A stretch of DNA of 64,000 nt from a virus: the IMG/VR virus record IMGVR_UViG_3300025736_000018, positions 652-64,651 of that record. One strand, 5' to 3'. Positions 9,083-64,000 of this stretch are shown in pieces. Position 1 is the stretch's first letter, and every line of letters starts with the position of its first letter. The translations under genes were made by a program, and so were the position numbers. The notes under the pieces were generated by a model. That model saw only the letters and a program-made list of their open reading frames with translations. It was not told the DNA's origin and made no database searches.

Positions 9083-9456
9083 GGGGCTGTAATGGTTTCG
9101 ACAGAGATAGAGAAGATTGAATCGGCACATACCGTGGATAGTTTAACTCAATCACGTTAAAAAACGTTAAACAAAGCTTAAACGCAAACAATTTACAATT
9201 AGCAGCATAGTCTGCCGGTAATTAAGTATACTGTTTATTTCATTCAGTTGCTTTTGTATACCGTCATTAAAAATGAATAAGCTAGTTTGATGATCAACTA
9301 TAGCTAGTCGAAAACTTAAGTTATCTATGCTTTAATTAGTGGCAAGTCAGGCAAACGTTAAGGCGAATTAAAAATAATATAATTTGACTAAGTATGTAAG
9401 TAAGTTGACAGTTAGCTTGTTTTTGGACGTCGGTTCAATTCCGACCAGTTCCACCA
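9083..9456 (+). ncRNA. ssrA: tmRNA (SsrA), tag ANNLQLAA ending in UAG
   Basis: 5' GGGGCTGTAATGGTTTCGACAG; 3' GGACGTCGGTTCAATTCCGACCAGTTCCACCA (tRNA-Ala-like T-arm and CCA); internal frame GCA AAC AAT TTA CAA TTA GCA GCA TAG. Confidence 0.8.
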
Positions 9457-9845: not shown

Positions 9846-9920
9846 AGGCTCATAGTTCAATGGCTAGAATAAAGGTCTCCAAAGCCTTTGATGTGGGTTC
9901 GAATCCTACTGAGCCTGCCA
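9846..9920 (+). tRNA. tRNA-Trp (anticodon CCA)
   Basis: acceptor AGGCTCA/TGAGCCT, anticodon arm AAGGT-CTCCAAA-GCCTT, T-loop TTCGAAT, encoded CCA. Confidence 0.8.
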
Positions 9921-22623: not shown

Positions 22624-23277
22624 ATGAAAATAATTAAACCAAGTTTTGAAATTGAATCGGAGATAGTTGGTTGAGCTCTACTGAAACATATTGAGAAGGC
22701 AGGTCGAACTGCATATAAAAGTGAAGATAAAATAACTGAAGACTCTGCAGCTAAGTTTGTTAAGATGATAATTGAAAGAGGTCACTTATCAGTATTAGAA
22801 CATTATTCTGTTACCGTAAGAGTAATTTGTGATAGAGGAGTAACACACGAAATAGTTAGACATAGATTAGCAAGCTACACACAGGAAAGCACTAGATATT
22901 GTAATTATAGTAAAAATAAATTTGGTAATGAATTAACGTTCATTGAACCTATATTTTGAAAAGAATCAACAGTAGACGATGCTAGCAAATATATGATTTG
23001 AGCAGATATGATGAGACATATTGAAAAAGCATATATCCGATTAGTCGAATTAGGTGCAAGTCCACAAGAAGCGAGAAGTGTACTCCCGAATTCATTGAAG
23101 ACAGAAATAGTTATGACGATGAATTTAAGAGAGTGGTTACATTTTTTTAAACTTAGAACTTCACTAGCAGCGCATCCGCAAATGAGAGAAATAGCGATTC
23201 CAATGTTAGAAGAGTTTAAAAAACAAATTCCAATAATATTTGATAGTCTTAATATAGTAAATCTTTTAGTAAGATAG
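22624..23277 (+). CDS. thyX: flavin-dependent thymidylate synthase ThyX (three in-frame TGA)
   Basis: ThyX signature RHRLASYTQESTRY; the 22765 and 23008 ORFs join in one frame when TGA is sense. Confidence 0.8.
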
Positions 23278-25784: not shown

Positions 25785-26066
25785 ATGAAAAAAATTTATA
25801 GAGTATGTGCAATGGAAGTACTTAGTATGGACATATATTACAGATATGAATCTTATGATAAACCAGCAGCACATGAATATGTATTGAGATGTTATAGAAG
25901 ATGTAAGAATATGAATCGTGATGAGAACGTAATGAATGATAATCTTACTCTAAAAGAAGCAATCAAATGGTTTAACTTTTATAACACTGAGCGCGAATTT
26001 GGTGGAGCAATTATTCAGGTTTATAATGAAGATACTAAAATCTGGGAGGACGAAAATGGGAAGTAA
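25785..26066 (+). CDS. hypothetical protein
   Basis: ATG after the leader. Confidence 0.5.
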   Translation: MKKIYRVCAMEVLSMDIYYRYESYDKPAAHEYVLRCYRRCKNMNRDENVMNDNLTLKEAIKWFNFYNTEREFGGAIIQVYNEDTKIWEDENGK

Positions 26067-26833: not shown

Positions 26834-26835
26834 AA

Positions 26836-27276
26836 ATGCACAAAAAAATAAAAGAGGCTTTTCAAAGTCTATTATCTAGTTATGAAAATATTTCTATAGA
26901 AGACATCAAAGTATATGAAGATGAATTTAAGCGATATCGCGATTCAGATATAACAAAAAGATCACCTTATTTACCAGATAAATTCGGCAGATATGTAATG
27001 AAAAAAAAATTTGGATTAGGAACTGATGATTTTATATTGTGCTGGACCGCTTGGGAAGTCGCTAGAAATTGCTTTAATACAATTCATTTTGATAAAAGAC
27101 ATGTATGTAAATTTTGTTTCGGAAATTTAGGAGGATGTGTTGATAAGAGCTTAGACGTAACAGCGCATAACATTCACGTTTCTGAAACTCCGGCAGAGTT
27201 GCTTGGTAATATTAAAGAGAGAGTTATAGTAATTAAAAAATGGCTAAAGGAGCACGGATATGAGTCAGCAGAGTAA
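26836..27276 (+). CDS. Cys-rich protein, divergent member of the same family (paralog 3)
   Basis: shared C-terminal pattern IKERVIVIKKWL and Cys spacing. Confidence 0.4.
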   Translation: MHKKIKEAFQSLLSSYENISIEDIKVYEDEFKRYRDSDITKRSPYLPDKFGRYVMKKKFGLGTDDFILCWTAWEVARNCFNTIHFDKRHVCKFCFGNLGGCVDKSLDVTAHNIHVSETPAELLGNIKERVIVIKKWLKEHGYESAE

Positions 27277-28272: not shown

Positions 28273-28656
28273 ATGGAAATTAATAAAAAGCCTTTTTTAG
28301 AATTGATTAAAAAGTATCGAAGTATTACTATAGCTGAAATTCAAGCTATTAAAGATTCTGGAGTCAGCGGATTTAATATCATTGCAATGCATTTAACAGG
28401 ATTTGGAGGAAGTACATCTTGTATATTATGTAGAGCATTTGATCACCGCTGTAAATATTGTTACGGAATAGAGACTTATTTTAATGAAGTCATTATGAAA
28501 GAGCACAGAGCACAATTCGGTTGTCTACATAATGATCATGAAAAGACATATTATAGAATTAAAAATGCGGGAACTGTAGACGACTTACTCAATGCTTTTC
28601 AAGCACGAGTAGATCACATTGAAAGGTGGTTGGAAAAATTTGAAGAAGAAAAATAA
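28273..28656 (+). CDS. Cys-rich protein, same family (paralog 4)
   Basis: KKPFLELIKKYRSIT ... LNAFQARVDHIERWL. Confidence 0.5.
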   Translation: MEINKKPFLELIKKYRSITIAEIQAIKDSGVSGFNIIAMHLTGFGGSTSCILCRAFDHRCKYCYGIETYFNEVIMKEHRAQFGCLHNDHEKTYYRIKNAGTVDDLLNAFQARVDHIERWLEKFEEEK

Positions 28657-39040: not shown

Positions 39041-39117
39041 ATTAAAGCTGTAACTTATTATGAGAGTTTGTATGAGTGATTGGTTGACTAAATAGCTAAA
39101 TTTTTATAATAAATAAC

Positions 39118-41367: not shown

Positions 41368-42318
41368 ATGAGTTTACCCGACGTACAACAAAACACAACT
41401 GGATTTAAAAAGCTTCCAATAGAGAAAGTTGGAGTGAGAGGAATCAAAGTTCCCTTTCATATATTCCAGAAAGGTAATTCAAAAAGCTTCAGTACAATAG
41501 CAACAATTTCAAGCTACTGTAATCTTGTAGAAGATGTTAAAGGGATAAATATGTCTCGCATTAGCAGAGCAATTAATGAAGTGTTGCAGAGAAATAAAGA
41601 TGGATTTACAAATTTAAATGATTTTGTATATGCGCTTCAAGAGGCTCATGGAGCAACTGATATTTATATTAAGGCAAATTTTGAATATTTATATGATACA
41701 TTATCTCCAATTGAAAAGGTATCGTCAATAGAGCCGGTCAATATTACATTTGAGAGTAAACTAAAAGATGATAAATTATTCAACTACATTACAGTTAAAA
41801 CTACTGAGATGTCATTATGTCCTTGTAGCAAAGAAATGTCATTATTAAAAAATAACCTGACAATGACTGAGAGTTTACTTATACAACATGCTCAATTTCC
41901 TCCGGTATTACTTAATAAAATAAACAATGCTGGCTTTGGAGCACATAATCAAAAATCTACAATTGAGGTTACATTTGAATTTATAGAAGGAAGAACAATG
42001 TGAATCGAAGATATAATGGAAATTATTAGAGAAAATGTATCATCTCCTACATGATCAACTCTTAAAAGAGGAGACGAGAAATATGTAACTGAAAGGTCTT
42101 ATATGGGTGGGTATTATGATGAGAATAAGAAATTTGTAGATACTGGCGGTGGTCCAATGTTTGTAGAAGACATTGTTAGAAATATAGCTTTTGAATTAGA
42201 TAAAGAATTAGATAACAGAATATTAGACTATTCTATTATAGTTAACAATCATGAATCTATTCATTCAGACGATATAATGGCTACTGCAATAATGACAGCA
42301 GGGCGAGAATTAAAATAA
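41368..42318 (+). CDS. folE2: GTP cyclohydrolase I type 2 (FolE2/MptA-like; two in-frame TGA)
   Basis: LPDVQ...IEKVGVRGIKVP, MSLCPCSKEMS, C-terminal HESIHSDDIMATA; the 41368 and 42103 ORFs share one frame. Confidence 0.6.
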
Positions 42319-42400: not shown

Positions 42401-42679
42401 ATGAGAGAAAGAACACAGGTGCAGGATTTTAAAGCAGAAAGAAAGTTAAAATATGTAAGTTCACATGCAAATAAGATTTCAAAAGATGATATGCAGTTGA
42501 TCTATAATGAACATGATATAGAAAAAAAGCGCACAATGGTTATTAAAATCATAAATGACTTCGCATACAAAGGTAAGCAAGCGCTTTTTTTGAAAAAAGT
42601 TAAAAGTACTAATAGTACTATAGGGCTAGATATAATAGCTTCAAATCTATACTTATTCGCTGAAGGACTTTATGTATAA
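42401..42679 (+). CDS. hypothetical protein
   Basis: ATG after the leader. Confidence 0.5.
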   Translation: MRERTQVQDFKAERKLKYVSSHANKISKDDMQLIYNEHDIEKKRTMVIKIINDFAYKGKQALFLKKVKSTNSTIGLDIIASNLYLFAEGLYV

Positions 42680-45600
42680 GGTATATTTAGCAAGACTCGA
42701 AAGAGGTCAACTTCCAGGTTGACCTTATTGTGTATATAAAATAGGTATTACTCAATTTGATAATGCTCTTATACGATTACGATATGCAGGTGCTGATGAG
42801 CCCAATCCTATTATAAAAACATTTCCAATAACTAAAATTATAAAGACAATTACTGTTGAAAATGAAGATCAAGCATTAAAAATTGAAGCAGAGATCATGA
42901 AAAGAACTATTAATTGAGCAAAGGATAAGAGATTTCACAATTGATACGAACCAGATCAAGTATCTGGAATTACTGAAATGCGAAAATGAGATAGAGCAGA
43001 GGTTCGATATGTGACTCACTTAATGAATAATACTCAGTTAATACTCGAGGATAAAGAAGTTATATTTTTTAAAAAGGAACAATTAATAATGAAACAAATA
43101 TTTAACATACATAATCATAGTACATTTTCAATACATGATGGAGTAGGTACTCCAGATCAGTGAGCAAAATATATCAGCGAAAATCCAGAGCAACATGTAC
43201 AAGCAATATCATTATCTGAACACGGTACACTAAACGGAATGATGGAAACTTTTAATGCAGCAAAAAAATATAATTTAAAATATATGCCTTCGGTTGAAAT
43301 ATATCTTGAAGATAAATATAATTTTGATAATCCACGCGAAAATCAAAAAGGTCATCTTGTTTTATTTGGAGTAAACAAGAGAGGTTATGAGCAAATAATT
43401 CAAATTAATAATTTAGCTATTCAACGTGGGCAAATACTTAAAATGAGAAGCGGAAAGCGAGTTACTGTAGTTACATTAGATATATTAGAAGAAGTAATTA
43501 GAGACGAAAGAGGAAACGTAAAATGTTCAGGAGCTTGCGTTGGTGGATATTGGAATCTGCCTATTCTTAAAAATAACGATATTAGAGCTGCTCATGAAAA
43601 TCTCATTAAAATAATGGAAATATTTGGTAAAGAAAATACTTATATTGAATACCAAGTATACTTAGATGATACGGATAAGCAACTTAGAGTAAATTGTGCT
43701 AATAAAATTTTTAAAGAGAAATATGATCTTAAAGCTATTGTAACTTCTGATGCTCATATAATTAAAAAAGACGATGTAAAATATCAAGCGGTTGCTGTAG
43801 CAATGGGTTGGAAAACAACATTGGAGCAATTTCTTAAAGTAGGCCATCTTCATTATTCAGTTTGGTTAAAAAATTCTGATGAGTTTTTTGAAGCATTGGA
43901 AATTAAAGAATTTGGAATAACAGAAGAGGATATGAGTGAAGCAATAAATGAAACGCTTAATATTTTTGATGAATTAGAAGAGATAGAATTATTTCAACCT
44001 CAAGTGTTCACATATCATAATAGTACAGAAGAAGAAAAATTACAAAAGTTTTCTGATCTTGTTTATAGTGGCTGGAATGAAAAAATAGATGGTATTATTC
44101 CAGTGGAAGAGCGTACACAATATATGGAACGTTTAGCTTATGAAACAAAATTATTACGCAAGAAAAATTTTATTGACTATTTTTTAGCTGTAAGTGAAAT
44201 TGTTGAAGAGGGTAGAAAACAAGGAATTGTATTTGGTGTAGGTCGTGGCTCAGCAGCTTCAAGTTTGGTTTCCTATTTGTTAAATATTACTAATCTAGAT
44301 CCAATAAAATATAATTTGATTTTTGAAAGATTTATTAGTGAAGATAGAATTGATTATCCTGATATTGATGTAGATTGCTCAAATAGAGAAGATCTAATAA
44401 ATATTATTCAAAGTCTCTATCCAAATAGTGACGTTACTGTTGTTGCTAATAAAAGTAAGTTAGGTCTCAAAAATTTAATTAATTATATGTTTAAGGTTTT
44501 TAATATTACATATCCAAAGAAAGACTATGTTTCTTCTGGATACTACTTTTCAGATTTAGTTGACAAATATAATCTTGATCAATATGATGTTGATTCGTTT
44601 ATGGAATTAGCTGAAGTAGAAGATTTAGAACAACATTTTAATAATAAATTTCCTAACTATAATCTTCACTATATGTTTAACTTATTAATTAAGAACCTAT
44701 CTAACATAGGTATTCATGCAGGAGGAGTTTGTATTCTTCCTAAGGGACAAAGTATTGTTCCTCTGACACCTGTAGCAAATGATAAATATGCGCATGGCTC
44801 TGGCTATTCTGAATCTGGTAATTACAGAGAGTTAGAATATGTAGGTCAAATTAAATTTGATTTCTTAGGCATTAGAACATTACGTATATTTGAAGATGTA
44901 GGTAAATTATTAAGAGAGAAATATGATGATTGGAATTTAGATAGAGTAAATAAATTATTAGAATTTGAAGGTGTTAATGTTGATGATAATATGGTATATG
45001 ATAGAATTAATACTACACTTACAGACGGATTTTTTCAAATTAGTTCTAGCGGAATGAAACAATTAATATGCGATCTTAAGCCTTCTAATATTGAAGAGCT
45101 TGCCCAATTGATTGCTTTATATCGTCCAGGTCCATTACAAGCTGGAATGAATAAAACTATGAAGGGAGTAAAGAATGGAGAGATAAAAGAAAGATCTCTT
45201 TGGCCTGAAGACTTACTATCTCACTTAGAGCCTATTATTAAGAATACTAGCTATCATATTCTATATCAAGAGCAATTAATGCATATAGGAAAAGCTATAG
45301 GAGATTATAGTATTATTGATTTAAATAATTTCCGTAATTTCTTATCTAAGGGGAATCCAATGAGAGAAAGTAATCCAAAGAAATTTGCTGAATGGCAAAA
45401 GAAATTTTACGATTCTTTCATTGAAAATGGAGCAAAAAAAGGAATTTCAAATAAATCGTTAGAGTTACTATGGGAAAAAATGAAGCAATTCTCAAAATAT
45501 TCATTCGTTAAAGCACATGCTGTTAGTTATGCACATAACGCCTTTATGTGCGCTTACTTATCACAATATTATCCAATAGAATGGTATACTGCAATGCTGC

Positions 45601-46481
45601 GTCATGAAGATCCTATAGAGTTCTTGCCAATTGTTAAAGAGCAAATTGAACAATTAGGATTAGAGATTCAAATTATCCCTCCGCAGATTAATAATATTTA
45701 TCGCGAATCAACTAATATTAATAATAAAGTTATTATTTTAGGTATTAATCAAATTAAAGGAATTGGCGTTAGAGCATCTGAAGAGTTAAACAATATTGCA
45801 AATATTCACTATGACAATTTCCAAGAGTTTCTCACATCAAAAGATTATTCTAAGCGGGTAATTAATAAAGGAATTGTGGAAAAGCTAATTAAAATTGGAT
45901 TCTTTAATACTATAGAGCCTGATCGTGCTAAATTATTAATCAAATATATGAAGTCTATAGTTAAACTTAAGAAAGGTGAGAAGCCTCCTGAAATTAATCG
46001 AAGTAATTTTTTATCTAAACTATATAATTTCAATGCATCAGAAGATTTGTTTTTCTTCAAAGCTGAAATGAGTATGATTGGAACCTCATTAACTTCATTT
46101 CCATATCAAGCTTTAGCTAATCAAGTAGATGCTATGGTACGAGACGATGTAAGAAAATATGCACGTGGTGAAGAAATTTACTTAGAAGTTTTAGCTGGTA
46201 TTGATTCTATTAAAATTAAACAAACTAAAACAAAAAAAGAGTTTCTAAGTCTTAAATTGAGAACTATTAGTGGTAAGTTTATATGGTGTAATTTGTTTGA
46301 TAGCAAAATGAAGCATATTGAAGAGCAATGGCAATTAAATTTAAAGAATGAAGATTATAGTGATACAATATTGATGTTTTACTATACAGAGAGTGGAAGC
46401 TGGAAGAATCTTTTAGATTTGGTACCACTACAAAAATTTATAGAAGTAAAAGAACAGGTAGATAAAAATGGAAAAGATTAA
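42672..46481 (+). CDS. dnaE: DNA polymerase III alpha-like replicase (DnaE/PHP) read contiguously with an N-terminal T5orf172/MUG113 domain; six in-frame TGA, all in the first 165 codons
   Basis: MYKVYLARLERGQLPGW(TGA)PYCVYKIGIT matches the T5orf172 start; no stop before the PHP motif IHNHSTFSIHDGVGTPDQW(TGA)AKY; 1080-aa TGA-free DnaE core from 43239. Confidence 0.6.
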
Positions 46482-49792: not shown

Positions 49793-49861
49793 GTTACTAT
49801 TTTTTGTAATTTTATTATATTATATATAAGTAAATTTAAGAATAACTTGGAGGTTATTAAA
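49793..49861 (+). promoter_or_regulatory. reiterated promoter/leader cassette (copy)
   Basis: GTTACTATTTTTTGTAATTTTATTATATTATAT then AACTTGGAGGTTATTAAA-ATG. Confidence 0.55.
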
Positions 49862-51783: not shown

Positions 51784-51812
51784 CACACAAGGTTATTAAT
51801 TTTAAAAAAAGA

Positions 51813-53321
51813 ATGATTAATGAAGAGGACAAGAACGTAAAGAGTCAAAAAAAATGAGCAATTGGAGATATTAGAAACGGATATCCGGTATTGCCATTAG
51901 AAGAAAGAAAAACAATTCTCTTGCTTAGTGACGATGCTAGAATGCATTCCGGCGTCGGGACTATGTCAAGAGAAATTGTTTTGGGCACCTGTCACTATTT
52001 TAATTGAGTTCAAATAGCTGGAGCAATTAAAAATCCAGATATAGGTAAAATAGTAGAGCTTTCGCAATCAACAGTAGATGCAACTGGCGTACCGGATGCT
52101 CAATTTAAATTATATCCAGTAAACGGATATGGTAATCCAAACGTATTAAGGATGGTATTAGCAAATGAACCTCAAGTTAACGGATTATTACATTTTACAG
52201 ATCCAAGATTCTGAGGTTGGCTATATCAAATGGAAAATGAAATTAGACAATCAATTCCAATAATGTATTGAGCTTTGTGAGACAATCTACCATACCCAAA
52301 ATGAAATAGAGATTTTTATAGAAGTTGTGATTTAATAATGAGTATTTCTAAACAATCAAAAAATATACATGATGTTGTATTAAAAGGTTATGCAAAAAAA
52401 GAAAATATTGAGGTTACATATGTGCCGCATGGCATAAATCCTAATGTTTTCTTTCCTATTGAAAATAAAGAGAATGATGTTGAGTATTCCAATTTTAAAA
52501 ATACAGTTCTAAATAGAGAAGAATATGATTTCATTATTCTTTATAATAATAGAAACCTCGGTAGAAAACGTACAGCTGATATTATGACTGCATTTCAATC
52601 CTTTAGTGAGAAGGTAGGTAATAAGAAAAAGCCTTTGCTACTAATGCGTACAGATATTAGTGATGATGGAGGTACAAATCTTCATGCAGTATATAGAGAC
52701 CTAATGCCCGAGATTAATGTAAAGTTTATACCAAGTAAAATATCACCTAGTCAAATGAACTATTTATATAACATGTCAGATTTAACAATTAATGTCTCTT
52801 CAGCTGAAGGATTTGGATTAGCTTCTGCAGAATCTATAATGGCAGGTACTCCGATATTAGTTAATTGTACCGGTGGGCTTCAAGATCAATTAAGAATGGT
52901 CAATGATGATCATTCACCAGTAGAATTTACAGAAGATTTTCCGAGTAACTCTTGTGGAGTACATAGAATTCATGGTCCATGAGCATTTGTAGTTTGACCT
53001 CAACAAAATCTGATAGGCTCTCCGCCAACTCCATATATCTATGATGATAGAGCAAGCATTAATGATATTACAGAAAAGATGTATGAAGCGTTTAGCTTAT
53101 CTAAAAAGAATATGAATGATAGAGCAGTGAAAGGACGTAAGTGAATATTAAATAATCTATCATCTCCCATTATGTGTGAAAAAATGACGAAAGATATTTC
53201 CAAATGTGTATATAGTTTCAAAGGTAGAAAGCATTTTGATATTTTTAAAATAGAAAGCAATGAGAAAGATGATAATACACTTGCTGGAATATGAGATGAA
53301 ACAATTAAAAAGTGATTATAG
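51813..53321 (+). CDS. glycosyltransferase, GT-B fold (GT4-like), about 11 in-frame TGA
   Basis: 502-aa frame from ATG 51813 to TAG 53319-53321; MNYLYNMSDLTINVSSAEGFGLASAESIMAGTPIL matches the GT4 C-terminal motif. Confidence 0.7.
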
Positions 53322-53331
53322 GTTTTAAAAA

Positions 53332-54981
53332 ATGAACTATAGAAACAATTCAACAAATATAACAAAAGTACTTTATGGGCCTGATTTGACAAAAGAATTA
53401 CAATCAGGAATTGAAAAGCTCGCAACAATAATTGCATCAACACTCGGTCCTAGGGGAAAAAATGTAATTATAAATAATAAGAAGAATAATATCCCTTTCA
53501 TTACAAACGATGGAGCTACCATAGCAAAGAGTATCTGTCTTGATAATGATTATGAAAATGCAGCAGTACAGCTCTTGAAACAAGCAGCATTAAAAACTGA
53601 GTCTGATGCTGGTGATGGAACAAGTACTGCTATTGTTTTGGCTAATGCAATTATAATGAATACAAGAACTGCAATGGAAGAGTATCCAAATCTTAATGTT
53701 AATAAGCTAAAAAGAGATCTTGATTATTGATTAGAAATTGCATTAGGATATATTGACAAGCAATCATTTGAGCTAAAAACAATTGATGAAGTAAGACATA
53801 TAGCTACAATATCAGCAAACAATGATGAGAGTATAGGAAACATTATAGCTGAAGCAATTGAGCTGGTTGGTAATGATGGAATAATTAACGTAGAGGAATC
53901 TCAAACAGGACTTACAGAAGTCATTAAAGTAGTTGGAATGGAAATTAAAAAGCCAATTATATCACCATATTTCATCAACAATCAACAAAAAGGAAATACC
54001 GATTTTAACGAAGAAACATATATATTAATTATAGATGATAAAGTATATCAACTAAGTAAACTATTACCAGCTCTTCAAGCTGCAACTAAAAGTAATAAAC
54101 CTATATTGATTATAGCTGAAAATATTGAAGGCGAAGCTCTTAGTGGACTAGTTGTTAATGCAGTTAAAGGTAACTTAAAAGTTTGTGCAATAGAAGCTCC
54201 TCATTTTGGTGACGAGCGTAGAAAAGCGCTTGAGGATATAGCCAAATTTACAGGTGCAACAATTTTGAGCAGTAAATATGGACCTCACACATTAGATAAT
54301 TTTGAGAATAAATTTCTCGGTGTAGCAAAGAGAGTTACTGCCGGATCGAGCTGTGTTATTCAAGAAGGTAAAGGTACAGGGTTAGAAGCTTATAAAGAAG
54401 GATTAAAACATCAGCTTAAAGATGAAGATAATAAACTTGCACTTAGAGACAAAGAAATATTAAATATTAGATTAGCTAACTTATCAGCAAACGTTGCAGT
54501 ATTAAAAGTTGGAGCTAGTACTGATGCTGAATTAATTGAAAAAAAAATGAGAATTGATGATGCAATTAGAGCTACTAAATGTGCTATAGAAGAGGGAATA
54601 ATTACAGGTGGAGGAATGTCCTTTTATAAAACATCATTAATATTAGGAAGAGAGTGAGATAAAAATTGAAGTGATGAGACAAGTGTCGCTAAAGCAATAT
54701 TGCAGAAATCATTACAAAGTCCACTACAAACAATAATTCAAAATTACGGTGGCGATGAAAATGAAATATTAATTAAGATTTTTAATGAAGATACTCCAAA
54801 CGTAACATTTAATGCTAATGATGGAAAAATAGTCAACGCATTTGAACACGGTATTATTGATCCAGTGAAAGTAGTTAAGAGCGCTTTAACAAATGCAGTA
54901 AGTATTGCAGGAATGATAATTACAACAACTGCAGCAATAATATATGATAAGGAAAAAAATAATGAATACATCAGTTACTAA
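53332..54981 (+). CDS. groL: GroEL-like chaperonin (three in-frame TGA)
   Basis: DAGDGTSTAIVLA, equatorial ATP-site GGG, C-terminus IDPVKVVKSALTNAVSIAGMIITT; the 53332, 53938 and 54700 ORFs share one frame. Confidence 0.8.
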
Positions 54982-56275
54982 GAAAAAAGAAGAAAAAGAG
55001 AAAGACAAAACATTTTGCTTACTTCATGGACCATTTAACACAGTTTCTGGTTACGGAGCACATGCAAGAGATATTGCAAGAGCAATAATTAAAAAATACC
55101 CCGATTGAGATATTAGATTATTTGACTGTCCATGAGGAAACACCCCAAGAAACTATTTAATGAAGTGAAGAGACGATGATTTAATAAATAGATTATTACA
55201 TGACGGGAAATTACCGCGAAAACCAGAAATATATATTCCAGTACTAATACCTCCTGAATTTAATCCAATAGGAAAATTTAATATTGGTATTACAGCCGGG
55301 ATAGAGACGACATTATGTCATCATTCATGATTAGAAGGTATAAATAGAATGAATTTAAATATTGTACCATCTAAGCATGCTAAAGACGTATTTGAAAAGT
55401 CTAATTACAGCAAGAGAAACAAAGGTAATAATGAAGTCATCGGACAATTAAAATCTGAAAAGTCTATTGAAGTTTTATTTGAAGGTGTAGATACGGAAAT
55501 GTTTCATAAAACGGATATGATTTCTAAAGAGGTCGCTGATTGTATGGATCAAGTTGAAGAGTCATTTGCATTCTTATTTGTAGGGCATTGATTAGACGGA
55601 GCATTTACTCATGATAGAAAAGATATTGGTGGATTAATAGAAACGTTTATCAATACATTTAAAAACAAACAAGTAAAGCCAGCATTAGTCCTAAAGACTA
55701 GTGGTGCGACATTTTCAATTATTGATAGAGAAAATATAATGGAAAAGATAAAGCAAATAAGGCATGATGATACTATGCCAAATATATATCTTATTCATGG
55801 TGATATGTCAGACAAGGATATTAATGGACTATACAATCATCCAAAAATTAAAGCTATGATATCATTAACGCACGGAGAGGGATATGGAAGACCATTAGCT
55901 GAATTTGCCGCTTGTGGTAAGCCAATTATTGCAACAAACTGATCTGGACATATAGATTTTCTTCATCCTAATTATTCAGTATTAATAAGTGGTGAATTAA
56001 GAAATGTACATAAGTCTGCAGCTAGAGAAGGTATGATACTTGAAAATAGTCAATGATTTTATGCAAACTATGCGAAAGTAAAAGAAGCATTATTAGATGT
56101 ATATAAGAATTATGGAAAACACAAAAAGAAAGCTGTCAAGCAAGCTGATATAATTAATAAGCATTATACATTGGATGCTATGGCAGATAAGCTATTTGAA
56201 ATATTTGAAAAGTATCTACCTGTATTTCCAAAAGAAATTCAATTAGCATTACCAAAATTAAAGAAGGTCGAGTAA
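54962..56275 (+). CDS. glycosyltransferase, GT-B fold (six in-frame TGA)
   Basis: SLTHGEGYGRPLAEFAACGKPIIATNW(TGA)SGHIDFL matches the GT1/GT4 nucleotide-sugar motif; start overlaps the GroEL end. Confidence 0.65.
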
Positions 56276-56881
56276 ATGAAAAAAGAAGAAGAGAAGACTA
56301 GTAGAAGTCTTAGTGATTTAAATAGTAAAATAATTAAAGTAGTTGAACCAAATGTAATATTTTTTTATGCTGAACGTTTAGACTATGAAAGTTCATTAGA
56401 GCTTAATGCAGCTATATGTGAGGTAACAAATTATGTTGAAAAGACAAACAAAACACAAACAAATCTAGAAAATTATACTGACCACATTGACTTACATATT
56501 TTTTGTCCAGGTGGACTAGTCTCTGCTGCATTTAGTAGCGCAAATATAATTAAAAGTAACTCGATAAATATTCATACATATATTGACGGATATGCAGCAT
56601 CTGGTGGAACAATAATTAGTATGGCTGGACATAAGAGATATATGTATAAAAAATCAGTTGCGCTAATTCATGAACCTTTTGGTGGGTTCATTGGAAAAGC
56701 TTCTGATTTTGCAATTGAAAAAGAAAATGCTGATTTAGAATTTGCTAGAGTATTAAATTATTACTCAGAAATTATGGATATTTCGAAAGATGCCATTTCT
56801 GAATTATTGAAAGAGGAGAGATTATTAAACGCAACACTTTGTCTCAAGTATGGAATTGTTGATAAAGTATTACAAAATTAA
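56276..56881 (+). CDS. ClpP-like serine protease (S14 family), candidate prohead protease
   Basis: FCPGGLVSAA (oxyanion loop), GYAASGG (Ser), ALIHEP (His). Confidence 0.7.
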   Translation: MKKEEEKTSRSLSDLNSKIIKVVEPNVIFFYAERLDYESSLELNAAICEVTNYVEKTNKTQTNLENYTDHIDLHIFCPGGLVSAAFSSANIIKSNSINIHTYIDGYAASGGTIISMAGHKRYMYKKSVALIHEPFGGFIGKASDFAIEKENADLEFARVLNYYSEIMDISKDAISELLKEERLLNATLCLKYGIVDKVLQN

Positions 56882-56903
56882 AAAAAGAGAATTAAAAAAG
56901 AAA

Positions 56904-57617
56904 ATGCAAAAACAACAGACGAAAGAGCAGTTAGAGAAAATATTTAAAGACAGAAAGTTCAACGTAGAAATTAAAGAATTTGAATCATCAGCAGAGGACG
57001 GTCTCAAATTTGTAGAAAAACGAGATGATATTGAGGATAGCTCAAAAGATATCCAGCTCGATGAATTATATGAAAATGAAGATGTGACTCCAGCAAACAT
57101 TCAAGCACAGCTTGATAACTATGAAGAAATGGAAGAGTTTCCTTCAACAGTAAAAAGAATTCAATGTCCGAGATGTAGTTCAATGAACTGTTTCGAAGAA
57201 GAATTCCCAGAATTATCAGATGGAACAAAAATGAATGGATATTTATGTAAGAATTGCGGTTATGTTTCCAATAGTGAATTTAAACACGACAGTATTTATT
57301 ACACAAATGCAATTAATAGACTTCCTACTATGGTAAAGAATCTAGAATTCTATGATGAAAAAAGAGAAATCTATTGGTTTCTTGCAATAGTGCAAACCGA
57401 CAATGGTTATGTATTTCCAGAACCTGATGAAAAAGATTGACATTGAACATATTGACCAACTATATTTATTCCGGAAGAAGAAAAAGAAAACTATCCAATA
57501 AAAGTGGACGGAGAAACTATAGGCTATTACGAACATAGATATGATATCGATAAAGCTCAACAATTTGATAAGACAGACTTCTATAAAGCACTTAGAGCTG
57601 TTGGACTAGAAGAGTAA
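56904..57617 (+). CDS. acidic Zn-ribbon protein, possible scaffold (three in-frame TGA)
   Basis: CPRCSS...CKNCG; sits after the ClpP-like protease. Confidence 0.4.
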
Positions 57618-57626
57618 AATTAAACT

Positions 57627-58133
57627 ATGTCATCAAATTTTGCAAAGAAAAAAAAGAAGAAGAAAACCAGTACTAAAGATTTTTCTAGACAACATGAAAA
57701 AAATATTGAAAAGAAAATAAAAACTACACTTGGTAAGCTAACTCCTGGTATGATTGCAAGATTTAATTATAGGGGTAAGGATGTACATGAGCCTCGCCCC
57801 TTAGTACTTATTTTAAATCCAAGATGAAAGAATCATTGTCATGCGATTGCATTACGTGTGCTAACTGAAGCAGAATTAATGCAATTAGCTAAAATGGTTA
57901 AACTTAGTGTTGGACAAAAAATAGCAAAAAAAGTTAAATTCTTACGATTAGGAACAAAGGCAGATATTGGAAACCCAGAAAGATTTTACAAACAAAAAAT
58001 AAAGCCTTATATGAGAAGAATAGATGAAAACGCATATCGTACATATAATACTCGCGGAATATCTAATGTTAATATTATTGATTATAGGTTTAAAGATATG
58101 GATCTAAGAACTTCAAAAAAGATTAAGAAATAA
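57627..58133 (+). CDS. basic hypothetical protein (one in-frame TGA)
   Basis: the 57627 and 57858 ORFs are in frame across one TGA. Confidence 0.45.
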
Positions 58134-58161
58134 ATTACTATTTTTAAAGGAAAGCTTATAT

Positions 58162-58402
58162 TATGATTAATACAATAGAAAAAATGGGGATCTTTTTAAC
58201 CAAGAAAAGATTTGTTAAAGCAACACAGCTTGATGAAATGGAAGAGATTATTGATAAAAACGGTGAGAAGTTTGTAGGCTTGCCAGGCGATTGAAAAATA
58301 ATTGATGAAAGCGGATACATATACTTCATAAGTAAATGAAAATTTAAAGAGTTGTATCAACCATATAATGATGCTGCATTTGATATGTATATAAAGTTAT
58401 AA
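58162..58402 (+). CDS. small protein with apparent +1 frameshift at AAAAAC-C-GGT (58255-58262)
   Basis: frame 0 MINTIEKMGIF...IIDKN then frame +1 GEKFVGLPGDW(TGA)KIIDESGYIYFISKW(TGA)KF...MYIKL*. Confidence 0.35.
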
Positions 58403-58414
58403 AAAGAGAATTAA

Positions 58415-58613
58415 ATGAAATTAATATGTGAGATCAAAGCAGTAAGTGATGCTTATAGAACAAGAGAAGAGTGTGGCTGAAGAGCAGGCAACGTGCAGAT
58501 TGGCGATGAGATAAGTAAAGTCATTGAAATATCAGATTCTGTAGTACGAGATACTCTACTTGTTGAATCTATAAAAAAAGAATTAATAGAGTTTATACAA
58601 AATTTAAATTAAA
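58415..58613 (+). CDS. small protein with apparent +1 frameshift at CTT-T-GTT (58559-58565)
   Basis: MKLICEIKAVSD...RDTLL then frame +1 VESIKKELIEFIQNLN*. Confidence 0.35.
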
Positions 58614-58631
58614 AAGAAGGAAGAAAAGAAG

Positions 58632-58847
58632 ATGAGAGTAAAATTTAATTATGAAGTTAACGAAATATTTCATGAAATTGAAATTGAAGCATGTAAAATT
58701 GAAGAAATAAAAAGCTTATTAGGTATTGTAATGTCTATAATTAATAATGAGTCAATGAAAGAAGTTCATATAGATCCGCTAGAAGACGAAGACGAAGGCG
58801 AAGGTGCTGCAGTTGATGAATTACCAACGACAGTGAAATGGAGATAA
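58632..58847 (+). CDS. hypothetical acidic protein
   Basis: 71-aa ORF. Confidence 0.45.
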   Translation: MRVKFNYEVNEIFHEIEIEACKIEEIKSLLGIVMSIINNESMKEVHIDPLEDEDEGEGAAVDELPTTVKWR

Positions 58848-58852
58848 ATAAA

Positions 58853-59170
58853 ATGAAAGTAGAAATTGAAGCTGATGATTATAATGCATTTAGAATCGCT
58901 TTGGAAGCTGCTGTAGAATTGATTAAGACAAAAAATCTTAAAAATACAGAAACGCATATACATTATCATTATAGCTATACATTTCCTAATTTTTGAGATA
59001 AGCCTGGTATCCCATTCTGGAGAGAATCCTTGTGGAATCCAGATTATCTAGATCAAATAACGTCAATATCTTGTGATGGAAGTGATTCAACTTATACATT
59101 TTCATCAACTTCAGATGAGCCAACTCATATTGATGGCATCAACTTTGACGGACCAATGAGTATATTTTAA
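58853..59170 (+). CDS. hypothetical protein (three in-frame TGA)
   Basis: 105 aa continuous: ...TFPNFW(TGA)DKPGIPFW(TGA)RESLW(TGA)NPDYL. Confidence 0.4.
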
Positions 59171-59192
59171 TAAAAAAGCTTAGGAGGAGTTT

Positions 59193-59858
59193 ATGATAAG
59201 TATTAGCTACGCGATTACCGTTTGTAACGAAGCTGAACAATTAGCTGAATTACTTGATAAGCTATTAGAAAAAATTGATATAAATGATGAGATAGTTATT
59301 CTTCATGATGAAGAAAATACAACACAAGAAGTTATAGAAGTTTGTAGAAATTATCAATATCAGTTTGGCAAGGGAATGGTACAAGGATTTTCACACAAGT
59401 TAAATAATGATTTTGCAGCACACAAAAATTTTCTAAATCAATGTTGCACGAAAGACTTCATCTTTCAAATAGACGCTGATGAAACTCCTAATTGTGCTTT
59501 ACTTAATAGTATTAAAGGAATAATTAATGAAAACCCCACTGTAGAGTTATATTATATACCTCGCATAAATACTGTTAGTAATATTACAGATGATCATATT
59601 AAGAAGTGGGGATGGAAAGTAAATGAGTACGGGTGGATAAATTTTCCAGATCATCAGAGTAGAATATATAAAAGAGATAATGAAAGAATATTTTGGGTAA
59701 ATCCAGTACATGAACGAATAATAGGTCACGAGCAGTTTGCACTACTTCCAGGACAACCGGAATATTGTCTATATCATAGAAAAGATATAAAGAAGCAAGA
59801 AGATCAAAACAAGTTTTATAATCAAATAATGAAAGGGCGTATAACGTTTACAAGGTAG
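59193..59858 (+). CDS. glycosyltransferase family 2 (GT-A fold)
   Basis: N-terminus ISISYAITVCNEAEQL and the DxD motif FQIDADE. Confidence 0.65.
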   Translation: MISISYAITVCNEAEQLAELLDKLLEKIDINDEIVILHDEENTTQEVIEVCRNYQYQFGKGMVQGFSHKLNNDFAAHKNFLNQCCTKDFIFQIDADETPNCALLNSIKGIINENPTVELYYIPRINTVSNITDDHIKKWGWKVNEYGWINFPDHQSRIYKRDNERIFWVNPVHERIIGHEQFALLPGQPEYCLYHRKDIKKQEDQNKFYNQIMKGRITFTR

Positions 59859-59864
59859 AGATAA

Positions 59865-61163
59865 GTGAAGAGAAAAGAAGCAATAGAACAATTTGTAAGT
59901 AACTTTAAAGAAATATATGGAATTAATAATTTTTGCCATAACGACAAAGACCCAAAGAAGGTATACTACTCAGGCCCTGTATTTGGAGAAGAAGAAACAG
60001 TTGCAATGATTGAAAGTATTCTGACTAGTAAATGACTTTCTGCTGGAGCTGCAGTAAATCAATTTGAGCATATGTTAGCTAAAAAGTATAATCAGAAATA
60101 CTCAATTATGTTAAATTCTGGAAGCTCAGCAAATCTGGTATTAATTAACGCATTAAAAATACTTTTTAAATGAGATAATAATAGCGAAATAATTCTATCA
60201 GTTGTGGGATTTCCAACTACATTAGCTCCAATAATTCAAAATAATCTTAAGCCAGTTTTTATTGATATTGAAATGGACACTCTTAATTTTGACATATCAC
60301 TTATTGAAAAAAAGATAAACAAAAATACAAAAGCAATAGTTATATCACCAGTTCTCGGTAATCCTCCAAACATGGATGAAATAACAAAAATAGCAACAGA
60401 ATATAATCTACATATTATATTAGACAACTGCGATTCGTTAGGTAGTAGATGAGACGATAAATATTTATCAGATTATGCAATTGCTAGTTCATATTCATTT
60501 TATCCAGCTCATCATATTACAACAGGAGAAGGTGGAGCAATAACAACAAACAATCAAGAACTAATTAAAATAGCAAGAAGTCTAATTAATTGAGGTAGAG
60601 CTTGTACATGCATTGGTGAAGAAAATTTAGGTAAAGACGGTTCGTGTGGTAAAAGGTTTTCAAAATGACTAGATGGATACGATAAAATAGTTGACCATCG
60701 TTATGTGTTTTCTAATATTGGATATAATCTTAAGCCGCTCAATTTGCAAGGAGCGATAGGTATTGAGCAACTCAAAAAGGTTGATGATTTTTTTATAAAG
60801 AGAAGAATTGCGAAATTTATAATAGGAAGATTATTTACTGATAATATTTATGGAGTGAGAATACCTGAAGAGAACAGAGAAGCGTACATAAGTTGGTTTG
60901 GTACTCCTGTTATATGTGATAATAATGAAATAAAAACTAAGTTAGTTCAACATTTAGAAAATAATGACATTCAAACGAGAAATTATTTTGCTGGAAACAT
61001 ATTAATACATCCAGGATTTAAACATCTAGGAAATTATAATGATTATCCAATAGCAAATGAAGTGCTAGATAGGGTATTTTTTGTTGGTGCAAGTCCTCAA
61101 TATGACAGCAACACTTTTCAGCATATTAAAAGAGTATTGAAGGCGTTTAAAAATGGTAATTAA
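59865..61163 (+). CDS. DegT/DnrJ/EryC1-family PLP enzyme, ColD/E1-like sugar 3-dehydratase (five in-frame TGA; GTG start)
   Basis: YYSGPVFGEEE...SKW(TGA)LSAG...NSGSSANLVLINAL; PLP-Lys position is His in SFYPAHHITTGEGG, as in ColD (SFYYSHH). Confidence 0.65.
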
Positions 61164-61239
61164 AGCAATATGTCACTACATGCCTTGAGATTTAGATTTA
61201 GCAATACTTAATGTTAATACAATAAAAAAATCAAGCTAT

Positions 61240-62055
61240 ATGCTACAAGATGGTGATAAGCTAATTGTAGCACTTACATTAAATTTATCAAGTTATATAG
61301 TTGATTGGTATAAATCTGAAATTTCTATAGATCTTTTAAAAGACAAGTTTCAAAGATTGTCACATATTATTGGAAATACTTCAAAAATAAGCTATCAGCT
61401 AAAAGTATTTTTAGGAGATGCTCTTTACGGACATCTTGACTCTCAAAGAGAGTCAATAAAAGAAGATAACGTTGATGGTTATATTCAATATTGCCCAGAT
61501 ATATATTTCAGTGAAACACTAATTCCTTTATATTTTCAAGCTGCCAAAATGATTAAAGAAAAATATTTCGTTGTTGCAGCACAGACTCCTAAACTATGAG
61601 ACAACACATGAGACGTACTACTTAATAGTAGATATAAAGATATGAATTTTAAAAATATGCAATATCAAAATATTAATATATATGATATTAATAATGATAT
61701 ATCACAGAATCAAAATTGAGGAAGACTTATACTTTTGCCAACAATTAAGTTTGCTGGATGAATGGATTATTACAGTAAAGGCTTTGCAGAACAATTATTT
61801 CCTGTACCTGATGATTGACACGGATATGGCTCTTGAGACTTATATTGTATAATACTTGGTAATGATCTAATACGTAAAGGATTTCCGCTTAAACAATATG
61901 TTATAGAAAATCAAATAATTTCACAACGATATTTATTTGATGGAGAGAACGTACATAATAATACACTAACAATGCCGTATCGAGAATTAATTTGTAGAAA
62001 GAATATTCCTGATCAAAGAGAAGTATTTGAATCAACATTACAACAAAAACTTAAT
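61240..62055 (+). CDS. hypothetical protein (six in-frame TGA)
   Basis: 271-aa continuous frame checked codon by codon; stop TAA 62053-62055. Confidence 0.45.
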
Positions 62056-62078
62056 GAGTGAAAAGCTTATGCAATAAA

Positions 62079-63074
62079 AGAAGGATTATAAAAAAAATGA
62101 AAGAAAGAAAACGTAAAAGAATATTAATCACTGGTGGATCTGGAATGGTTGGTCAATATATGAAAGATGAAGCAGAGCGTTGAGGTTATGATGTTTTTAA
62201 TAAAGTAAAATACTTATCAAGTGTTGATTGTGATTTACAAAGTACAACACAAACACGAGCTTGCTTCAAAATATTTAAACCTGATATAGTAATACATTTA
62301 GCAGCTAAAGTAGGCGGAATTATTACAAACTCACTAGAACCTGTGGAGTTTTATGAAGAGAACACATGTATTAATATAAACGTTGTTAAGATGTGTCATG
62401 AATATAATGCTAAATTAATAGCAATGGGTAGTACATGCTCATATCCAGATAAAGTTGATAAGTATCCAATGACAGAAGAGGATATATTTAATGGACCTCC
62501 TACTTGAGATCATTTTGCATATGCAATGTCAAAGAGAGGATTAATTACTCATATTGAATCATATAACAAAGAGTATAATAAAAATTGATGTTATATTATA
62601 CCATGTAATATATATGGAAAATATGATAAATATGATCAATATAATGGACACTTTTTATCATCTTTTATAAAAAGAATTACAACATTAGTAGAAACTACAA
62701 CATCAATAGAGTTATTTGGTACTGGAGAACCTTTAAGACAACACATATATGCCGGAGATGTAGCAAAAATATTATGGATTATGATTAATCGTAATATTAC
62801 AGAAAGTTTTAATGTTTGTCCAGATGAAAATTTAAACATTAATCACATTGCTGAAACAACACTGCAAAGTTGTTTAAGAGAAGATTTAAAAATTGTACAT
62901 AACCCTACAAAACTTGACGGTCAGTATAGAAAAGATGTATCAAATACTAAAATGAAGAATATTTTTGAAGATAAATGTATATCATTTGATTTTACTCCAC
63001 TAAGCGCTGGTATACGTCTTGTATATGATTATTTAATAGAGCAGCAAGAGTCTTTAGAATTAGGTAGTTGGTAA
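62079..63074 (+). CDS. GDP-L-fucose synthase-like epimerase/reductase (Fcl/ColC-like; four in-frame TGA); start unresolved
   Basis: ILITGGSGMVGQ, HLAAKVGGI, GSTCSYP, YAMSKR; no in-frame ATG/GTG/TTG between the stop at 62076 and the conserved N-terminus. Confidence 0.6.
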
Positions 63075-63080
63075 AAAATA

Positions 63081-63302
63081 ATGAATAAGGAAATAGCTAT
63101 GAAATACGGAGATTTAATTAGATTAAGAGAAGAGTTTATGGAAGAATCATGTTATGAAAGTTTTAGAGATCACACATTTGTTTTTATGGGTGAAATGAAT
63201 CAAATGCCAGGTCATTGTATTTTAATTCAGATACACACGGGGAAAGTACACGTAGGTTATCATACAGATAGCTTTAGACTATTAACAGATGATGAAGTAT
63301 AA
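63081..63302 (+). CDS. hypothetical protein
   Basis: 73-aa ORF. Confidence 0.4.
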
Positions 63303-63303
63303 A

Positions 63304-64000
63304 ATGGAAAAACACGATAAAATTAGCAAGGTAATGATTACTACAGAAGATGGTTTAAAATTTGACTTGGCTGATGCTGCACGAAGGTTTCCGGAAATTA
63401 TACGTGATGAAATTGATAGAGAAATATTAGAAAAGCTTCGTAAATCAGCACCAAAATTTCCAAAAGAGATGAAAGTAGCACTAATCACAGGTATATCAGG
63501 TCAGGATGGAAGCTATTTAGCAGAGCTATTACTTGAAAAAGATTACGAAGTGTGAGGTACTCTTAAAAGAAATTCAGTAGCTGAAAACCAATCTAGTAGA
63601 ATTAATCATATTAGATCACAACTACATTTAGAGTATGCTGATATGACAGATATGGCGTCGCTAATACGAGTTTTATCTATGTGTAAGCCAGATGAGGTAT
63701 ATAACTTAGCAGCTCAATCGCATGTACAGATATCATTTAATCAACCAATATATACAACTAATACTATTGTAATGGGAATAATTAATTTGCTTGAAGCAGT
63801 TAAATTAATATGTCCAGAAGCTAGAATATATCAAGCATCTTCTTCAGAAATGTTTGGCAATAGTATTGATGAAGACGGATATCAAAGAGAAACAACGCCA
63901 ATGCATCCTGTGAGTCCGTATGGTTGTGCTAAACTATTTGCGCATAAATTATGTCAAACATATAGAGCATCATATAATATGTATATCAGTTGTGGAATAT
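63304..64000 (+). CDS. gmd: GDP-mannose 4,6-dehydratase (Gmd), 3'-truncated by the window edge; alternative start ATG 63469
   Basis: [28 protein letters not shown](TGA)-[34 protein letters not shown]. Confidence 0.8.

Follow-up and report, generated by a model that had tools for sequence, protein, structure and literature searches.

An uncultured, large, tailed phage of Ace Lake, a marine-derived lake in the Vestfold Hills of Antarctica, reads TGA, judging from its sequence, as tryptophan (Trp; genetic code 4). It does so in only part of its genes: in one set TGA carries most of the Trp codons, whereas from the other it is missing altogether. We studied a 64,000-nt stretch of this phage (positions 652 to 64,651 of IMG/VR record IMGVR_UViG_3300025736_000018; hereafter the window), to which 21 kb upstream and 5.8 kb downstream were added from other assemblies of the same phage; roughly 87 kb were inspected. 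Contigs resembling the window at 99.8–100% identity are present in many assemblies, and the same arrangement is kept in samples spanning years; IMG metagenome 3300031227, which comes from Ace Lake (PMC9324843), holds a near-identical contig. The phage is AT-rich (30% GC). If just TAA and TAG are counted as stops, 91% of the window is occupied by 123 non-overlapping open reading frames (ORFs). The plus strand carries all of the window genes, and GC skew is positive across the entire 64 kb.

Evidence that TGA is a sense codon for tryptophan

At least one in-frame TGA is found in each of 34 of the 123 ORFs, with totals of 81 TGA and 213 TGG codons. Between positions 51,801 and 64,000, the share of the DNA that lies in stop-to-stop ORFs of 200 aa or longer is 28% under code 11 vs. 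85% under code 4. This coding-density check bears out TGA as a sense codon, as proposed in an earlier reading of the sequence alone (hereafter the sequence-only reading), in which Trp was the most likely amino acid and glycine (Gly) the alternative. When TAG is made a sense codon instead, coverage is unchanged at 28%. That reading was also right that TAA and TAG end the genes (98 and 24 ORFs, respectively, the remainder running to the window edge) and that TGA is never needed as a terminator.

Homology extends across the TGA codons. The Pfam family Cpn60_TCP1 gives one unbroken match over residues 30–534 of the GroEL homologue, spanning three TGAs; DegT_DnrJ_EryC1 matches residues 2–375 of the ColD-like protein, spanning five, and GDP_Man_Dehyd matches residues 65–237 of the GDP-mannose 4,6-dehydratase (Gmd), spanning one. 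In the Fcl-like protein the Epimerase match covers residues 9–241 with three TGAs, and GDP-L-fucose synthase from the PDB aligns over residues 7–308, so that all TGAs are crossed. Public gene calls on the same DNA are already full-length, with products of 502, 549, and 437 aa.

To assign an amino acid to the codon, we used the GT4-family glycosyltransferase (51813–53321) as a query with X in place of every TGA; the resulting alignment comprises 119 non-self homologues of ~45% identity, many of them Tara Oceans sequences. Trp is the majority residue at seven of the 11 TGAs (119, 119, 117, 112, 88, 84, and 72 of 119 sequences). One further TGA is opposite Tyr/Leu, the other three are in the variable or gapped ends of the protein, and no TGA is in a Gly column. 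A three-way codon comparison placed TGG opposite seven GT4 TGAs in L022, a marine Tara Oceans contig and the relative whose code was read as standard (no in-frame TGA among 92 Trp codons; TGA as the stop of 6 of 24 genes, 25%). The second glycosyltransferase has five of its seven TGAs opposite TGG in the same contig and one opposite TAT. In the DegT/ColD-like protein, TGAs stand opposite the W of 'WLTTG' and of 'DWGRDC' in PDB 3bcx, and another stands opposite Tyr/Phe. The GroEL TGAs sit at variable positions and are therefore uninformative on the amino acid. Trp rather than Gly is thus shown by the GT4 columns, by the TGG codons of L022, and by the Trp residues of 3bcx. A family of small paralogues that had been cited for the same assignment was recovered as described, with ..DGWKL.. 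and ..AGWKP.. written with TGG and ..NG-TGA-EL.. in the copy at 9544. These three G-W-(K/E) proteins are scattered among the tRNA genes (2542–2855 and 9544–9783), and public calls give a weak DUF1737 match at 2542–2706.

The neighbouring bases of the in-frame TGAs show nothing unusual, and the codon thus behaves like a normal sense codon that needs no special sequence context; a dedicated read-through context at TGA was looked for and none was found. Several other readings were rejected. Under code 25 TGA would be Gly, but no TGA column has a Gly majority, and just two isolated Gly matches occur, both in another relative, L021 (SRR29699978). Selenocysteine is ruled out, as the TGAs occupy invariant Trp columns. 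Recoding of TAG brings no gain in coverage; new starts follow the TAG-ended genes, no tandem-stop adaptation is seen, and the same-frame neighbour pairs at TAG-ended genes number five, about the chance expectation. A residual use of TGA as a stop near gene ends, as at the ATGA overlap at 24493 or in the tail of QueC, was also dismissed, since the enrichment of TGA in gene tails is not significant (p = 0.11–0.24). Among the population contigs we looked for TGA/TGG polymorphism and found only 38 differences in all, with zero at TGA codons.

Two regimes of TGA use

In-frame TGAs are distributed very unevenly between genes. The heterogeneity of TGA vs. TGG per gene reaches G = 241.6, against a maximum of 186.6 over 20000 permutations, and it holds in the first 51.8 kb alone (3 of 20000 permutations); the patchy use that the sequence-only reading described is in fact sharper than it stated. 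Trp is encoded by 174 TGG and no TGA in 71 genes, and 89 genes, including 18 without a Trp codon, have no in-frame TGA in any role, sense or stop. By comparison, 78% of the Trp codons in the module at 51.8–64 kb are TGA. Codons for Lys, Glu, Gln, Leu (TTR), and Arg (AGR) are 69–91% A-ending in every gene class and 69–88% in the 71 TGG-only genes. Because these other NNA/NNG pairs show the same A-bias, 78% TGA is the level expected of an unconstrained sense codon.

The two gene classes are alike in non-Trp synonymous codon usage and in GC content at third codon positions (GC3; p = 0.29 and 0.60). By composition, then, the TGG-only genes are not foreign, and it looks as if selection keeps TGA out of them; a foreign origin of the TGA-rich genes, tried with the same two measures, was likewise rejected, as no difference between classes was found. 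Since TGA is absent from them both as sense codon and as stop, the 89 TGA-free genes yield the same products under code 11 and code 4. Among them are those in the region of the tRNA cluster, the neighbourhood of the transfer-messenger RNA (tmRNA) gene, RNA ligase, RtcB, the CCA-adding enzyme, PncB, NadE, QueD, and QueE. The TGA-using set includes the GDP-sugar, glycosyltransferase, and GroEL module together with ThyX, dUTPase, FolE2, QueC, and the 5' end of the DnaE ORF. Within genes, the first TGA lies at a mean relative position of 0.39 (0.38 expected), and gating at the N-terminus is not indicated.

A list of genes with zero TGA in the sequence-only reading could be kept for RtcB, the CCA-adding enzyme, PncB, NadE, QueD, and QueE but not for four others. 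QueC has two TGAs (codons 223 and 236 of 239), the radical-SAM 'RlmN-like' gene has one (three codons before the stop), the PD-(D/E)XK exonuclease has one (seven codons before the stop), and the DnaE core has one in its PHP domain (ORF codon 164). The canonical N-terminus of DnaE (MKQIFNIHNHS) corresponds to an internal ATG at 43089 that has its own AAGGA ribosome-binding site; ahead of it, the ORF has 139 extra N-terminal codons in the same frame, uninterrupted by TAA or TAG. Every one of the five TGAs of the ORF falls within codons 1–164 (42672–43163). The extra N-terminal part has no Pfam or PHROG match, which leaves the label T5orf172 given to it earlier unconfirmed.

The TGA-rich block is at least 18 kb long and runs at least 5.8 kb past the window end, where Gmd (0 TGG/7 TGA), GT10 (0/5), and a thiamine pyrophosphate (TPP) enzyme (3/4) continue the pattern. 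Its end is marked by a second ThyX gene, in convergent orientation, and by a new promoter. This second ThyX gene (L007, 19196–19894, minus strand) lies ~5 kb past the window end and is the only minus-strand gene seen near the window; its protein has no match in IMG/VR or JGI contigs. Inside the block, the segment 58424–58859 is a strain-variable cassette, in place of which assemblies L010 and L011 have other genes (125 and 119 aa) between flanks that are ~99.9% identical.

tRNA genes and a candidate reader of TGA

The phage carries 25 tRNA genes and a tmRNA gene over ~30 kb (the first 12.7 kb of the window and 17 kb upstream of it), in a cluster that ends at a DNA ligase gene. Nine of the tRNA genes and the tmRNA gene lie in the window (ARAGORN, Rfam). 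The cluster serves every amino acid except Tyr, and its anticodons are mostly U34.

Its tRNA-Trp(CCA) has a U11–A24 pair in the D stem and an anticodon stem of 5 bp, from A27-U43 to U31.G39. The change G24A is the one by which Hirsh's E. coli tRNA-Trp(CCA) became a UGA suppressor, and a survey from 2026 reports that tRNA-Trp(UCA) is missing from some code-4 bacteria and that A24 and/or C9 variants occur in 2,414 of 3,438 bacterial tRNA-Trp(CCA) genes with a 4-bp stem (PMC13092985). As such variants are common, A24 is not diagnostic in the phage tRNA, which we treat as a candidate near-cognate reader of UGA and not as proof of one. It resembles the Hirsh suppressor in the U11–A24 pair and in having no UCA tRNA beside it in the cluster. 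It differs, with its 5 bp, from the 4-bp anticodon stem described for Blastocrithidia and for some code-4 bacteria without tRNA-Trp(UCA) (PMC13092985).

The cluster also contains a tRNA(CUA) of the amber-suppressor type, which is at most 59% identical to the other cluster tRNAs, with no clear derivation from any of them. Despite this tRNA, TAG ends 24 of the 123 genes, and no back-up stops follow those genes. Three tRNAs with Leu anticodons (UAA, CAA, and UAG; L018 11309–11385, 11830–11906, and 14310–14387) are 77–78 nt long and lack the long variable arm typical of bacterial tRNA-Leu. A TGA-free toolkit for tRNA repair and translation is formed by a PTH2-like hydrolase (weak match), RNA ligase, RtcB, the CCA-adding enzyme with an HD domain, and cREC (Table 1).

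Promoters and transcription layout

A sigma70-like promoter-plus-leader unit with the pattern GTTACTATTTTTTGTAATT-N-TTATATTATA ... AATAACTTGGAGGTTATTAAG-ATG was found by regular-expression scan in 17 exact copies on the plus strand and none on the minus strand, with a variant at ~15103. Most leaders end in GGAGG and ATG, and in several cases the units stand directly after terminator-like hairpins. At 17413 and 47739 the unit is 74 nt long, and these two copies share ~92% identity with one that lies upstream of the window. Genes directly after the units are TGA-free in 16 of 18 cases, and the TGA share of Trp codons is 0.04–0.13 at <500 nt from a promoter vs. ~0.57 at >3 kb. Tests of this trend gave mixed outcomes (codon-level Mann-Whitney, p = 3e-9; circular shifts, p = 0.057; module excluded, p = 0.02), and it is only suggestive of the recoded genes being the promoter-distal, later-expressed ones. 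We saw no separate late-promoter motif upstream of the TGA genes. A sigma-factor-like gene with one in-frame TGA (L018 805–1653, minus strand; phrog_351, E = 3e-19) lies ~20 kb upstream of the window, outside the tRNA cluster.

Table 1 Features of the Ace Lake phage, with positions in the window and counts of in-frame TGA and TGG codons where these apply.
Feature	Position	Strand	Details
GT4-family glycosyltransferase	51813..53321	+	502 aa; 11 TGA, 1 TGG; Pfam Glycos_transf_1 / GT4-conflict
GroEL/Cpn60 homologue	53332..54981	+	549 aa; 3 TGA, 0 TGG; Pfam Cpn60_TCP1
Second group-1 glycosyltransferase	54962..56275	+	7 TGA, 0 TGG; Pfam Glycos_transf_1
ClpP-like protease	56276..56881	+	201 aa; no TGA or TGG; Pfam CLP_protease E = 2.5e-23
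Six small genes	56850..59170	+	8 TGA and 4 TGG combined; no Pfam or PHROG match
GT2 glycosyltransferase	59193..59858	+	4 TGG, 0 TGA; Pfam Glycos_transf_2
DegT / ColD-E1-type sugar 3-dehydratase	60006..61163 (public calls start at 59865)	+	5 TGA, 1 TGG; best PDB match 3bcx, ColD
312-aa protein	61153..62091	+	8 TGA, 1 TGG; one gene in public assemblies; no Pfam or PHROG match
GDP-L-fucose synthase (Fcl/ColC)-like epimerase-reductase	62097..63074	+	3 TGA, 2 TGG; Pfam Epimerase, PDB
GDP-mannose 4,6-dehydratase (Gmd)	63289..64000 (cut by window edge)	+	full gene in L007: 7 TGA, 0 TGG
ThyX	22624..23277	+	3 TGA, 1 TGG; Pfam Thy1 E = 1.4e-52; followed by terminator-like hairpin and next promoter
dUTPase and QueC	37862..39091	+	dUTPase 3 TGA, 0 TGG; QueC 2 TGA, 1 TGG; Pfam dUTPase, QueC
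FolE2 GTP cyclohydrolase	41368..42318	+	2 TGA, 0 TGG; Pfam GCHY-1 E = 4e-59
DnaE ORF	42672..46481	+	Pfam PHP, DNA_pol3_alpha, finger, HHH_6
tRNA(CUA), amber-suppressor type	4378..4452	+	ARAGORN; Rfam tRNA 61.4 bits; also in assembly L013
tmRNA	9083..9456	+	tag peptide ANNLQLAA; ARAGORN; Rfam RF00023 121 bits; among tRNA genes, adjoins tRNA-Trp(CCA)
tRNA-Trp(CCA)	9846..9920	+	ARAGORN, Rfam; D stem G10.U25, U11-A24, U12-A23, C13-G22
PTH2-like hydrolase	3731-4357	+	
RNA ligase	6086-7252	+	
RtcB	24493-25695	+	
CCA-adding enzyme	32764-34251	+	
cREC	35001-35444	+	
Promoter units (~18)	2867, 5588, 8044, 9934, 12820, 14484, 15103, 17413, 23370	+	regular-expression scan, intergenic listing
Promoter units, rest	25704, 28212, 32730, 34953, 39118, 42327, 47739, 49794, 58135	+	regular-expression scan, intergenic listing
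Promoter unit upstream of the TGA-rich block	49794..49861	+	GTTACTATTTTTTGTAATT..TTATATTATA..AACTTGGAGGTTATTAAA-ATG; last full unit upstream of the block; weaker copy at 58135

Gene content and affiliation of the phage

The genes recognised comprise the large tRNA cluster with tmRNA; RNA ligase, RtcB, the CCA-adding enzyme, and a cREC receiver domain; PncB and NadE; QueC, QueD, QueE, and FolE2; ThyX and dUTPase; a DnaE-type polymerase and a PD-(D/E)XK nuclease; and the block of sugar-nucleotide, glycosyltransferase, GroEL, and ClpP-like genes. Domains of the T4_Y16D and NUMOD3 families are also present in the phage. The window has zero DNA-level matches to cultured phages, and no cultured phage has a DnaE that exceeds 27% identity to its own, the best cultured matches (~26%) being Bacillota phages. 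By these measures, the phage belongs to a lineage without a close cultured relative. Small Cys-rich paralogues (..PF.ELIKKYRSIT...NAFNERANHIE.WL..) are tandemly repeated at 26026–27276 and 28273–28656; all of them are TGG-only, and they have no Pfam match. A tandem repeat, (GGAAAATATT) x 4, lies at ~30745–30790 in a stretch that is intergenic under the ORF set used.

The TGA-rich module matches phage records from Flavobacterium and Microcystis as well as the standard-code contig L022. In L021, a relative that is more AT-rich, the order ThyX-GT4-GroEL-GT-ClpP is kept at ~50% amino-acid identity; its in-frame TGAs are sometimes at the same Trp positions as in the Ace Lake phage, and more often TGG stands there. 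A related phage from Ace Lake itself (L023, 42% GC) looks standard-code and has no UCA tRNA either.

Explanations for the restricted use of TGA

The explanation that we prefer, with roughly even confidence, is that the phage switches an infected standard-code host cell to TGA = Trp; the host code, the timing, and the decoder are parts of it that we infer. The host would be on the standard code, and the bilingual TGA-free genes would be translated first. The infected cell would then be converted to TGA = Trp, which would unlock the TGA-bearing genes, and because TGA stops have been purged genome-wide, the switch would cause no read-through. As decoder, a tRNA(UCA) encoded in the part of the genome yet to be sequenced or the phage tRNA-Trp(CCA) with its U11–A24 pair could serve, and each of them would presumably need a weakened release factor 2 (RF2). 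A phage-imposed switch is favoured because it alone explains why TGA is excluded, as sense codon and as stop, from 89 genes that have the same bias and codon usage as the others. As to the identity of the host, RtcB is closest to metagenome-assembled genomes of Bacteroidota (54–59% identity), which points only weakly to a host.

A number of observations weigh against such a switch. No UCA anticodon was detected in the whole tRNA cluster by ARAGORN or by Rfam, including permissive thresholds, and no tRNA(UCA) was detected in the window, in the 21 kb upstream, or in the 5.8 kb downstream, the last of which holds no tRNA at all. The sole suppressor-type tRNA reads TAG and not the recoded TGA. The link drawn in the sequence-only reading to phages that supply the suppressor tRNA is thus not borne out by the 25-tRNA cluster, which has CUA and tRNA-Trp(CCA) instead, within ~87 kb of a larger genome. 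Pfam domains of release factor 1 (RF1), RF2, or tryptophanyl-tRNA synthetase (TrpRS) were found in none of the window ORFs of at least 300 aa and in none of most ORFs of at least 120 aa. The signatures of the host conflict as well, in that the strong GGAGG ribosome-binding sites and the -35/-10 promoters are not Bacteroidota-like.

The gene distribution raises further difficulties. The TGA-rich genes belong to sugar-nucleotide, glycosyltransferase, GroEL, and nucleotide-metabolism functions, and none is recognisably late, structural, or lytic; no structural or lysis gene was recognised in the window, so the parallel drawn earlier with recoded late genes is not supported here, the timing being something we can only infer. 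Within one pathway, genes with and without TGA are intermingled (FolE2 and QueC vs. QueD and QueE). Three glycosyltransferases had been said to require TGA, which is the case for two of them; the third, GT2 at 59193, is TGG-only though it lies within the TGA-rich block. In the DnaE ORF the first five Trp codons (codons 17–164) are TGA and the next twelve are TGG, an order with 1 chance in 6188, which a simple timing gate does not explain. Finally, the trend with promoter distance becomes marginal (p = 0.057) when it is assessed by circular shifts, which respect clustering.

Alternatively, the host itself may use code 4 (e.g., a wall-less or Bacillota-related lineage in the anoxic zone of Ace Lake), in which case a host tRNA-Trp(UCA) would read TGA. 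We think this somewhat unlikely, although several of the observations above speak for it: the phage tRNA set is otherwise nearly complete and has no UCA tRNA, no gene class uses TGA as a stop, the genes with TGA are ordinary metabolic genes and not late genes, and the best cultured DnaE matches, at just ~26% identity, are to Bacillota phages. The lower zone of the lake holds up to 4% Tenericutes and up to 6% Firmicutes (PMC7416419), and of 27 code-4 phages in INPHARED, 22 infect Mycoplasma or Spiroplasma and have the same code as their host (PMC11210395). Nonetheless, a code-4 host leaves unexplained why none of the 174 Trp codons is TGA in 71 genes whose NNR pairs are 69–88% A-ending and whose codon usage is the same, and code-4 systems typically have the UCA form of tRNA-Trp, whereas the phage carries tRNA-Trp(CCA). 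A further argument against a host of this kind is that most of the known code-4 bacteria live in association with hosts and are not free-living aquatic organisms. Across 42,109 bacterial genomes, a UGA-to-Trp reassignment is predicted in 0.5% (PMC13092985).

The patchiness could also be mainly historical, the genome being a recombinational mosaic of TGA-rich pieces from long-recoded relatives and TGG-only pieces from standard-code relatives. The sharp boundary between five TGA and twelve TGG codons inside the DnaE ORF is what such a history would leave, as are the TGG-only GT2 gene adjoining the strain-variable cassette and the orthologues that are mostly TGG in the recoded L021 but mostly TGA in the Ace Lake phage; cases are on record of close phage relatives that differ in code (bioRxiv 10.1101/2021.08.26.457843). 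As the main cause we consider it improbable, given that the two classes are alike in composition and synonymous codon usage, and that recent import would have to be assumed for 71 of the 105 Trp-containing genes, although promoter and leader repeats are common to them. Moreover, a mosaic accounts for the distribution only and not for the decoder of TGA. A phage-imposed switch or a code-4 host may well be overlaid by a mosaic history.

A particular form of the decoder, to which we give a similarly low rating, is that tRNA-Trp(CCA), expressed from the strongly promoted TGA-free cluster, reads UGA near-cognately with no cognate suppressor involved, while tmRNA, the PTH2-like hydrolase, and a putative anti-RF2 activity would handle the side effects. 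The least credible account, that TGA is still a stop and that the genes are decaying pseudogenes or pass through low-level natural read-through, may draw on the TGAs that stand a few codons before TAA or TAG and on the ATGA start/stop overlap at 24493, but we regard it as effectively refuted, since it is at odds with full-length homology in genes with up to 11 TGAs, with TGAs at invariant Trp positions and without significant enrichment near gene ends, with mostly synonymous nucleotide differences between assemblies in the TGA-bearing genes, and with an arrangement conserved at 99.8–100% identity across many samples over years.

Comparison with known recoded phages

Phages that read TGA as Trp are known from the gut, where they include the Jade, Sapphire, and Agate clades and some crAss-like phages; code-4 phages on standard-code hosts are documented among them, and a suppressor tRNA with the UCA anticodon (Sup-UCA) is detectable in just 15–35% (bioRxiv 10.1101/2021.08.26.457843; PMC11210395). 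The Ace Lake phage resembles the recoded gut phages in having TGA opposite Trp, in the restriction of TGA to a subset of genes, in replication and other genes that remain compatible with the standard code, in close relatives that are standard-code, and in that most of those genomes, too, have no detectable Sup-UCA tRNA. It differs in coming from an Antarctic lake and an unrelated lineage. In the gut phages structural or lysis genes are recoded, whereas here it is sugar-nucleotide, glycosyltransferase, chaperonin, and nucleotide-metabolism genes. A further difference is the 25-tRNA cluster, which has no cognate suppressor but does have tRNA(CUA), with no RF1 or TrpRS operon seen in ~87 kb.

Phages of Mycoplasma and Spiroplasma, which follow the code 4 of their hosts, likewise have TGA as Trp, TAA and TAG as their only stops, and an AT-rich genome. 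The Ace Lake phage is unlike them in that TGA is absent from two thirds of its Trp-containing genes despite the A-bias elsewhere, and neither its environment nor its gene content (T4_Y16D, NUMOD3, the large tRNA set, and tmRNA) is similar to that of the known Mollicute phages. The 'code-11-compatible' phages of Absconditabacteria and Gracilibacteria are comparable in that TGA-free genes read the same in two codes (PMC10746230). The code-25 phages of these hosts differ, as TGA in the Ace Lake phage is opposite Trp and not Gly (PMC10746230).

Implications

Stop-codon recoding in phages has so far been described mainly from human and animal guts, and the present phage comes from a polar, marine-derived lake. 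The type of recoding is already known; what is new is the environment, a lineage without a close cultured relative, and a clean two-regime signature. The phage offers a clear internal contrast: Trp codons stand at mutational equilibrium in one gene set, where 78% of them are TGA, and the other set has no TGA at all. In practical terms, annotation under the standard code fragments the GDP-sugar, glycosyltransferase, and GroEL module of this phage. Our results also sharpen the question of what decodes TGA in a phage that has a near-complete tRNA set but no UCA tRNA, for which the tRNA-Trp(CCA) with A24 is a testable candidate. If this tRNA does read UGA near-cognately, the TGA-free promoter-proximal genes and the TGA-bearing promoter-distal genes would together amount to a built-in translational timer.

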